Program-made: the position numbers and the translations under genes
Assembly (NCBI GenBank): GCA_965195345.1
Contig: OZ239628.1
Span: 1,711,553-1,775,552, forward strand
Source: an uncultured Thiomicrospira sp.
GTDB lineage: Bacteria > Pseudomonadota > Gammaproteobacteria > CAKMZV01
DNA: 64,000 nucleotides
Direction: 5' to 3'
The notes under the pieces: model-generated
Seen by the model: only the letters and a program-made list of their open reading frames with translations
Told to the model about the DNA's origin: nothing
Database searches by the model: none
Part shown: one piece after another, positions 44,187 through 45,800 of the stretch
Layout of the letters: every line of letters starts with the position of its first letter
How positions within the stretch are numbered: position 1 is the first letter of the stretch

Positions 44187-44680
44187 AAATACACCAAATA
44201 ATTTTATCTAGATTAAATCTTTAACGATCAACCGTAGCATAGCAACACCCTCTAAAATTTAGGGGGTGAATTATAAATCTTGATTATGGAATGAAAGCCC
44301 CTATTTATATTAAAATTTTCAATGGGTTGCTTTGCTAAATTTGCATTATCTGGCGTATTAAATAAGTGCATAAATGCACCAGAGCAGTTTAAAGAAAGAT
44401 ATCGATGAATTGATGAAGACTCGGGTTGGAATAGAAAATGTAAACTGGAAGAGTGATTTTGCAACCGATTCAAAAAGAACTGAACGAAAAAATCAGAGAG
44501 CTGATGAATACTCAATTTTTAGATAGATAATGAACATGGTAATGGTAATATCAAACTAACCAATGCCAAACAGCTTAAGAAGCAAATCTGCTCTATCTTA
44601 ACATGTGCACTGAGTGCCCCAAAGGAACTGTTGTAGATTTTGTTAAACGGAAGGAAGGAATATGTTAAGGATACAGTAAT

Positions 44681-44824
44681 ATCCAACGATCTATTGCTTG
44701 CACCATATCTTAAGGTACTCATAACGGTTCACTTAAGAGTTTCTTCTTTTTTGGAAACGAGGCAACGTTAGAATACATATAATATATTTAATACCAGTTT
44801 AATACAATTCATGCGGAGTAAACT
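44681..44824 (+). promoter_or_regulatory. conserved leader/promoter region of the paralog array (copy A)
   Basis: about 145 bp, about 80% identical to 45652-45800, both ending in the GGAG RBS and ATG of a paralog; conserved ACGTTAGAAT(A/G)CATAT core. Confidence 0.35.
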
Positions 44825-45490
44825 ATGAATGAAAAAAAACAATCTTTGTTAGGTGGTGGAGAAGAATTAAGAGCAGTTTGTACTCCTGACTCAGGAGCTG
44901 CAGGAGTAAATGTCACCATAACAGCGACGCCTGCGTCTGAACCCTCAGGATTCCACAATCTAACCATTTTAGGCGGAGTAATAACATCATTAGAAACAGG
45001 GTTAGCCGAAAGATTAGATAATGTAGAAGCTGTGGAAGATGCAAAAATTTATACTACAACGCTCCCTAATGATCTTGATGAAGGACACTACGATATTGTC
45101 ATAGATTTAATATCACACGTCCCAGGTGCAGAAGAGTCACGCTTTACGATTAAGGCCAGTTATGAGGTTGAGGCGCATAAACCGGGTAAAAATCCTGAGG
45201 TAAGAACAATCATCCCATCGACAGTTTCGCAAGCTGAATTCAATACAAAAGTATTCTCTGCGCAGGGAACTAATTTTGATAAGTTAAATGTTCAGCGTGG
45301 TGCTCAAATAATTTCTGAAACTGGATTAACCAGATTAAGCATAACGCCTCAAAGTGATACAAGATGCCTTATACGTGTACTCAATCCATCTGGCACTCCT
45401 CCTTCGGAGGGTGTTTGGGCAATGTTCATGTACAGCAGCGGTGGAGAACCTATTTCATCAACATCTAGGATTCGAGTGGTGAAAGAATAG
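44825..45490 (+). CDS. paralog 1 of a 221-aa protein family of unknown function (no signal peptide, Ser-rich tail with terminal acidic residues)
   Basis: MNEKKQSLLGGGEE...; 75-80% identical to the three downstream copies; GGAG RBS 7 nt upstream. Confidence 0.8.
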   Translation: MNEKKQSLLGGGEELRAVCTPDSGAAGVNVTITATPASEPSGFHNLTILGGVITSLETGLAERLDNVEAVEDAKIYTTTLPNDLDEGHYDIVIDLISHVPGAEESRFTIKASYEVEAHKPGKNPEVRTIIPSTVSQAEFNTKVFSAQGTNFDKLNVQRGAQIISETGLTRLSITPQSDTRCLIRVLNPSGTPPSEGVWAMFMYSSGGEPISSTSRIRVVKE

Positions 45491-45566
45491 TAAGCGCACC
45501 AAATGTCATCATATAATCCAGTATTCTAAGAAACATTTCTCACTCATAGATTATATAAATCCAATT

Positions 45567-45651
45567 ATGGAAAAAGATTACCTAACTTGTAATCGCTATC
45601 TGCCGATGTTTTTTTAAACGGGAAAAATGAAACCTTTTAGAATTCAGCAAT
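45567..45651 (+). pseudogene. 5' remnant of a copy of the large (1014-aa) gene
   Basis: The sequence after the paralog-1 stop (...CCAATTATGGAAAAAGATTACCTAACTTGTAATCGCTAT) parallels the sequence after the paralog-4 stop through the large gene's ATG (...CCAATTATGAAAAAAGTTAGCG...ATAACTTGTCACCGCCTAT). An about 17-nt deletion and a stop after 16 codons follow. Confidence 0.45.
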
Positions 45652-45800
45652 ATCCAACGATCTATTGCTTGCGCTATGTCTCAAGGTATTCATAACGGTT
45701 TAATTAACAGTTTTTCTTTTTTGAAAGCGAGATAACGTTAGAATGCATATTACTATACTAATTTAAATATGAGTTCAACACCATCCGTGCGGAGTAAGCT
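45652..45800 (+). promoter_or_regulatory. conserved leader/promoter region of the paralog array (copy B)
   Basis: see 44681-44824. Confidence 0.35.

Follow-up and report, generated by a model that had tools for sequence, protein, structure and literature searches.

A probable tandem-duplication junction within an array of small paralogous genes beside a 1014-codon gene in an uncultured Thiomicrospira

In a 64,000-nucleotide (nt) stretch of contig OZ239628.1 from an uncultured Thiomicrospira sp., which we call the window and number from its first letter, five rightward open reading frames (ORFs) are flanked by two leftward genes, one MTHFR-like (43377-44186) and one for an M24 peptidase (51353-52558). 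Four of the five are small paralogs, numbered here 1 to 4 in their order along the plus strand and lying at 44825-45490 (221 amino acids, aa), 45801-46469 (222 aa), 46511-47179 (222 aa) and 47221-47886 (221 aa), and the fifth is a large gene encoding 1014 aa (47961-51005, plus strand). The four small proteins share 69-77% pairwise identity (73-77% between paralog 1 and the other copies), except for the nearly identical copies 2 and 3. Read directly, all four small genes carry GCGGAGTAAAC(T/C)ATG at their starts, which provides a good Shine-Dalgarno sequence, whereas the sequence before the large gene, AAATCCAATTATG, holds no recognisable Shine-Dalgarno ahead of its ATG. The locus has a GC content of 0.38-0.42, in line with its surroundings. 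Compared through its SecA with a collection of species representatives that does not hold the source genome, the bacterium falls only as a deep-branching gammaproteobacterium, its best matches being 60-62% identical and coming from uncultured Gammaproteobacteria. Our analysis centres on positions 44560-45800, which we consider to be, probably, the leftover junction of an old head-to-tail duplication of 971 bp, after which a 710-bp unit gave rise to copies 2-4, the copies recombining with one another and remaining in working order.

Paralog 1 is preceded by a 187-nt untranslated leader (44638-44824, plus strand) that ends in the Shine-Dalgarno sequence GGAG, and a 192-nt leader in the same orientation stands before paralog 2 (45609-45800). 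The two leaders align with a local score of 171, compared with a maximum of 28 among shuffled sequences, and the repeat comprises families D6, D7 and D9 (79-92% identity, at an offset of 970-971 nt). An earlier note on this DNA had seen this recurrence and placed its start at 44681 and 45652; the repeat is real, and the alignment sets its start 43 nt further upstream. Scanning both strands of the window revealed no further copies of the leader or of the spacer-plus-stub segment described below, in keeping with the same note's observation that the full leader is carried by copies 1 and 2 only.

The interval between copies 1 and 2 also contains sequence belonging to the beginning of the large gene. 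From the end of copy 1 on, 93 nt (45488-45580) align with 47884-47973 (score 110; shuffle maximum 29), matching the stop codon, the entire 74-nt spacer that separates copy 4 from the large gene (47887-47960, plus strand), and the ATG plus 10 nt of the large gene itself, such that the copied start region contains the CCAATTATG context. Within this alignment, 45491-45566 is the plus-strand equivalent of the original spacer and is represented by families D8 (85% identical) and D10 (96% identical). The stub of the large gene follows at 45567-45604 (plus strand, 38 nt). Its first 14 nt lie inside the strong alignment, and a second island, 45583-45604, is collinear with 47993-48016 at a score equalled in 1-2 of 500 shuffles or genomic decoys; because of this collinearity, we read the stub as what remains of a copy of the first 56 nt of the large gene after decay and the deletion of 19 nt. 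That deletion brings a TAA into the original frame and leaves the stub out of frame, and the segment now reads as a mini-ORF of 16 codons (45567-45617). Similarity to the large gene is absent beyond 45604, and 45609-45651, which scores at chance level against it, is part of the leader repeat. The frameshifted copy of the large gene's 5' end reported earlier at 45567-45651 is thus present, out of frame and with its ATG context, but extends over 38 nt rather than 85.

Compared with the spacer, the stub and the large gene, the 98 nt upstream of leader 1 (44540-44637) give scores that do not rise above the shuffle mean, and nothing resembling the 3' end of the large gene or its downstream flank is present ahead of copy 1 or in the interval between copies 1 and 2. 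A self dot plot of the whole window at word size 12, the check proposed in the earlier note, displays exactly two off-diagonal runs outside the coding copies, namely 44678-44701/45649-45672 (offset 971) and 45551-45569/47945-47963 (offset 2394), over a background of isolated single words, so that the off-diagonal signal on which that note had staked its reading is indeed there.

Further downstream the copies are packed more tightly. Copies 2 and 3 are separated by a 41-nt spacer (46470-46510, plus strand) where about 8 nt from beyond the stop codon run into the final ~33 nt of the leader, Shine-Dalgarno included, and a second 41-nt spacer separates copies 3 and 4 (47180-47220, plus strand); as had been noted before, the two are of identical length, and they differ by one base. 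Across the locus, all repeats are in the same orientation and at constant offsets, of 971 nt for the leader plus copy 1 or 2 and of 710 nt for copies 2-4. Similarity to the large gene runs out at 45604 and that between the leaders sets in at 45609. From the gap of only 4 nt (45605-45608) we infer a single join point at this position, and support for it comes from the lack of unit similarity upstream of 44638 and from the dissimilarity between the 3' flank of the large gene and the region before the leader. Direct repeats at a constant offset, a single join point and no similarity beyond the outer boundaries, three marks of a head-to-tail tandem duplication, are therefore found here.

To place the duplicated segments in time, we compared their divergence with that of the genes. 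The leaders are ~80-85% identical and the spacers 85-96% identical, while synonymous divergence (dS) between copy 1 and the other copies amounts to 0.12-0.19, with a value of 0.18 between copies 1 and 2. As the divergence of the leaders matches the synonymous divergence of copies 1 and 2, leader and gene appear to be equal in age. Copies 2 and 3, by comparison, differ at 3 nt (dS 0.013), a pair that would reflect either a very recent duplication or recent homogenisation. Patterns at variable sites resolve three lineages of similar depth, in which 30 sites are private to copy 1, 49 are private to copy 4 and 47 are common to copies 2 and 3.

The two halves of the gene do not share one genealogy. 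Over codons 21-120, copy 1 is closer to copy 4 (dS 0.07) than to copy 2 (dS 0.28), whereas over codons 121-221 the order is reversed (dS 0.19 to copy 4 and 0.11 to copy 2), a difference that is significant for all differences (Fisher p = 0.0002) and for synonymous differences (p = 0.027). Because synonymous sites carry the mosaic pattern, recombination or gene conversion is a likelier source than domain-specific selection. The first 60 nt of the genes and the spacers are almost invariant among the copies, which suggests homogenisation or constraint at the 5' ends. Overall, the ratio of nonsynonymous to synonymous divergence (dN/dS) lies at 0.7-1.2, rising to ~1.4 in the C-terminal domain, and no significant excess over 1 is seen (p 0.4). 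All copies are nonetheless open and of conserved length, an outcome with a chance of ~0.0002 for all three lineages under random substitution, and on these grounds we regard the copies as functional genes that evolve fast, rather than as decaying duplicates. Recombination combined with near-neutral to elevated dN/dS in intact genes is typical of arms-race proteins or of proteins with changing binding targets.

These patterns can be accommodated in a history in which the ancestral locus would have consisted of a leader, one small gene, the 74-nt spacer and the large gene. The order small gene, spacer, large gene is present in two related loci from other bacteria described below (L082 and L083), and the small-then-large order in a third (L085) that has an extra small gene downstream of the large one. 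Tandem duplication would then have taken in 971 bp, with one end where the leader begins (now 44638) and the other near nt 56 (codon 19) of the large gene, yielding leader 1, copy 1, a spacer copy and a large-gene stub, followed by leader 2, a second small gene, the spacer and the intact large gene. The stub would be a by-product of where the distal breakpoint fell, rather than the relic of a repeat unit with a large gene in it, and would later have lost 19 nt and drifted. The downstream copy may subsequently have been amplified as a 710-bp unit, with one breakpoint ~33 nt ahead of the ATG and the other ~8 nt beyond the stop codon, producing copies 2, 3 and 4 with their 41-nt spacers. Throughout, the copies would have exchanged sequence by recombination or gene conversion while being kept as working genes whose protein changes fast.

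Several observations weigh against this history. After ~20% divergence, no clear microhomology is discernible at either junction, and a claim of microhomology there was dropped as statistically insecure. The second island of the stub spans only 22 nt, its significance resting on collinearity together with the 1-2 in 500 of the controls, and without it the stub shrinks to 14 nt of coding sequence. Moreover, in the N-terminal half copy 1 has copy 4, and not copies 2 and 3, as its nearest neighbour, which a simple split between copy 1 and the ancestor of copies 2-4 does not predict, so that recombination or shifts in rate must be invoked. Finally, no outgroup strain with which to polarise the events was found, protein searches having returned this genome's own copies only.

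The same architecture could, in principle, have arisen along other routes. Duplication of the whole operon, complete large gene included, followed by deletion of the first large-gene copy from about nt 57 to just before leader 2, would leave an identical present-day arrangement, and the 19 nt missing from the stub demonstrate that deletions have happened here; such a two-step origin nevertheless requires two events where one suffices, and no trace of the body, 3' end or downstream flank of a large gene survives between 45605 and 45609, making it in our view quite unlikely. We hold as more improbable still the proposal of the earlier note, in which an ancestral unit carrying the large gene upstream of the leader and small gene gave the array by recombination between units and left two stubs. 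A large-gene stub does sit directly upstream of leader 2, as that proposal expects, but the weaker second stub placed at about 44590-44680 dissolves on inspection, as 44540-44637 is at chance and 44638-44680 matches leader 2 and not the large gene, and neither leader is preceded by 3' or downstream sequence of the large gene. What stands of the proposal is that the stub and the second leader record growth of the array; the ancestral unit itself finds no support. As for mis-assembly of repeats, the 99.6% identity between copies 2 and 3 across 710 bp makes them the type of repeat that assemblers can miscount, yet the two leaders, the two spacers and copies 1, 2 and 4 differ by 8-20%, marking them as distinct sequences that neither collapse nor expansion would create, and the source is a single contig of 1.92 Mb, leaving an artefact as the least credible of these accounts.

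A further possibility, compatible with origin by duplication, is that the duplicated spacer and stub have been kept for a function, as an internal promoter or translation start for copies 2-4 or as a regulatory ORF of 16 codons. A 26-nt block, TTATATAAATCCAATTATG(G/A)AAAAAG, is 96% identical between the two sites (family D10) compared with ~80-85% around it, and direct reading places a TATAAA-like -10 motif within it, 7-9 nt before the ATG. At a background identity of 82%, however, one such block is close to chance (estimated p ~0.04, uncorrected for multiple windows), and perfectly conserved blocks of 24-26 nt were not taken as proof of function, a claim that is statistically insecure. The scan for consensus promoters and terminators gave counts at shuffle expectation, with none in the leaders or spacers, and the leaders, which fold into different structures, have neither a conserved RNA fold (z -2.0 in one copy and +0.6 in the other) nor a match in Rfam, where the only hit at E <=1 was a chance snoRNA match inside a coding region. 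Taken together, we judge retention for function to be unlikely, although less so than any of the alternative origins above. The Rfam and folding results also speak against a structured RNA leader such as a riboswitch or attenuator. Leader 1 contains an AT-rich hairpin followed by a T-run (~44708-44752) that is not conserved in leader 2. At the large gene, which lacks a Shine-Dalgarno, the TATAAA-like motif 7-9 nt before the ATG was duplicated together with the stub (47945-47963 and 45551-45569); reading these letters alone, one possibility is that the large-gene transcript is leaderless, or that duplication of the stub carried a promoter or leaderless start with it.

Tandem segmental duplication and amplification in bacteria, with novel join points, is the substrate of the amplification-divergence view of new genes. 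The array resembles such events in its head-to-tail repeats at constant offset, in the joining of a distal to a proximal sequence, in the amplification of a sub-unit and in the exchange between copies. It departs from laboratory duplications, which are unstable and lost without selection, in the age of its copies (dS about 0.12-0.19) and in that each of them is intact and evolves fast, which argues that they have been retained. As a product of tandem duplication the scar is a textbook case, and its value lies in dating and ordering the growth of the array. Surface-protein arrays of the pilE/pilS and vls type, where promoterless or truncated silent cassettes feed one expression site, likewise combine clustered paralogs, mosaic similarity and a high nonsynonymous rate. 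Unlike in those systems, the four copies here are full-length ORFs of 221-222 aa, each with its own GGAG Shine-Dalgarno and ATG, and we accordingly rejected a silent-cassette locus for antigenic variation.

To learn whether the genes of the array occur elsewhere, we searched protein databases and genome collections. Neither the small nor the large window proteins matched any entry in Pfam, NCBIfam, PADLOC or PHROGs. Word-index protein searches returned this genome's own small proteins and one distant relative of the large protein on a cyanobacterial-looking contig; an alignment-based search found no relatives beyond these, and a scan of a genome-contig collection found no match to the large protein. 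An exhaustive profile search with the large protein reached 235 representative clusters, its closest relatives being 31-37% identical overall. A scan with a narrower alignment recovered two partial loci from metagenomes and none from viral contigs. Given the absence of PADLOC and PHROG matches and of viral-contig relatives, we set aside an anti-phage defence system or a phage protein as an identity for the pair. In the cluster look-up, all named relatives are annotated as 'hypothetical protein', for example in Temperatibacter marinus, and a literature search for the domain combination described below yielded nothing relevant.

The two gene types nevertheless travel together. Eight loci with a relative of the large protein were examined, and in seven of them the neighbouring genes include homologues of the small window proteins, paralog 1 among these (blastp E 1e-15 to 1e-5; profile E 1e-82 to 1e-7). 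These small genes encode ~200-245 aa, lie upstream or downstream of the large gene and number one to five per locus: one each in L082, L083 and L090, one that is split in L087, two each in L085 and L088 (the latter from T. marinus) and five in L084. The eighth locus, L089, which includes the 3' end of the large gene only, has no small gene. In the metagenomic locus L084 (10910-14113), the five small paralogs flank the large gene, three on one strand and two on the other; their identity of only 25-35% shows that the small gene has multiplied repeatedly and that its multiplication can lie far back. The small proteins and the 1014-aa protein thus form an unannotated gene pair that is conserved across several unrelated bacteria, a pair more interesting than the scar and one that offers a handle in the question of which small subunit binds what.

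Other features of the related loci deserve mention. The L084 module is adjoined by transposase (rve, HTH_Tnp_1) and resolvase genes, and a CRISPR-Cas locus (Cas1, Cas2, Cas4 and a large RuvC/REC1 effector; 9192-15053) lies a few kb from the module in L085, probably by coincidence. In the cyanobacterial-type relative L001, three ORFs (185, 222 and 114 aa; 8204-9827) precede the large gene, and the 185-aa protein, which has two TIG-like halves, shows only marginal similarity to the small family; different clades may have different partner sets. Distant members of the large family that bear signal peptides and sorting domains for type IX secretion (T9SS) have no small partner that we could see. 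The clade of the window protein, by contrast, carries no signal peptide and is characterised by a conserved N-terminal PPIPPGEKIL motif.

Structure prediction gave a partial picture of both proteins. The small protein is tentatively read as two Ig-like beta-sandwich domains, and its AlphaFold2 model, built from the four paralogs only, is all-beta with two sandwich-like halves at a poor predicted local distance difference test score (pLDDT) of 47.6. With this model, Foldseek listed Fab and S-layer Ig domains, none at E <=0.001, and was not informative. The IPT/TIG family (PF01833) has no match in the window copies at the gathering score and matches weakly in 2/10 family members (best E 3.8e-4), and a profile search of the small family against the PDB brought up nothing useful.

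The model of the large protein (pLDDT 70) is divided into four regions. At the N-terminus it has the fold of a seven-bladed beta-propeller, and although the window protein has no match to the FG-GAP family of Pfam, 12/40 relatives do. Residues 380-544 form an unmodelled stretch. In the central domain, four strands of ~30 residues are modelled as two hairpins whose tips, at pLDDT <50, are Ser/Thr-rich with hydrophobic residues in alternation. The C-terminal sandwich is CARDB-like, the family profile matching chain 2kut_A at E 0.009; the Pfam family CARDB (PF07705) is matched by two relatives, one of them above the cut-off, and not by the window protein. The modelled hairpins with their Ser/Thr-rich tips recall beta-barrel pore formers (aerolysin/ETX-MTX2, anthrax PA domain 2) and secretin barrels, with all matches below threshold: Foldseek listed secretins for the large model at probabilities of 0.8-0.99 but with TM-scores <=0.1, Binary_toxB_2 was reached by one distant member at 20.8 bits (cut-off 25), and the family profile matched Cry23Aa1 at E 0.65. 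A profile of the central domain alone found no match in the PDB. With no significant sequence or fold match, we do not place the protein among the beta-pore-forming toxins (aerolysin/ETX-MTX2, binary toxin B).

The propeller invites comparison with integrin-alpha and FG-GAP propellers and with bacterial propeller lectins (PLL, PDB 5c9o), from which the large protein, itself without a Pfam match, differs in adding two long hairpins and a CARDB-like domain. In the Vibrio cholerae biofilm matrix, RbmA is a small protein with two Ig-like FnIII domains, RbmC and Bap1 are large FG-GAP propeller proteins, and signal peptides are present. There, as at our locus, a small two-Ig-domain protein is encoded near a large propeller protein; the window proteins, in contrast, lack signal peptides, and the likeness is offered as an analogy only. 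The most we would suggest from the models is a large propeller/hairpin protein that may form a complex with variable partners of two Ig-like domains. Judging by the secreted distant relatives, this complex probably acts at or outside the cell envelope. A bolder proposal, which we rate as clearly improbable, is that the small genes encode interchangeable, fast-diversifying Ig-like partners of a so far undescribed propeller/double-hairpin family, whose members may build either a large pore- or secretin-like beta-barrel or a surface complex with an adhesive role, and that the scars record ongoing amplification and diversification driven by hosts or competitors. If this were so, such amplification and diversification would recur independently in other lineages, with one to five small genes per locus.

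Around the array, ~450 nt upstream of leader 1 (44187-44637) lie outside the repeat and are apparently gene-free, holding only short ORFs of 87 aa (minus strand) and 50 aa (plus strand). Directly upstream of the array is a cluster of one-carbon/methylated-amine genes (35015-44186), whose members include an 804-aa FAD oxidase fused to a GcvT-like domain, a 426-aa GcvT-family protein and the 269-aa MTHFR-like protein. No tRNA genes were found in the window. Farther away, at 16714-19149 on the plus strand, an 811-aa protein carries an N-terminal SIR2/ThsA-like domain (PADLOC ThsA1, E 4.6e-24, with a weak match to Dsr2) and is possibly the product of an anti-phage defence gene.

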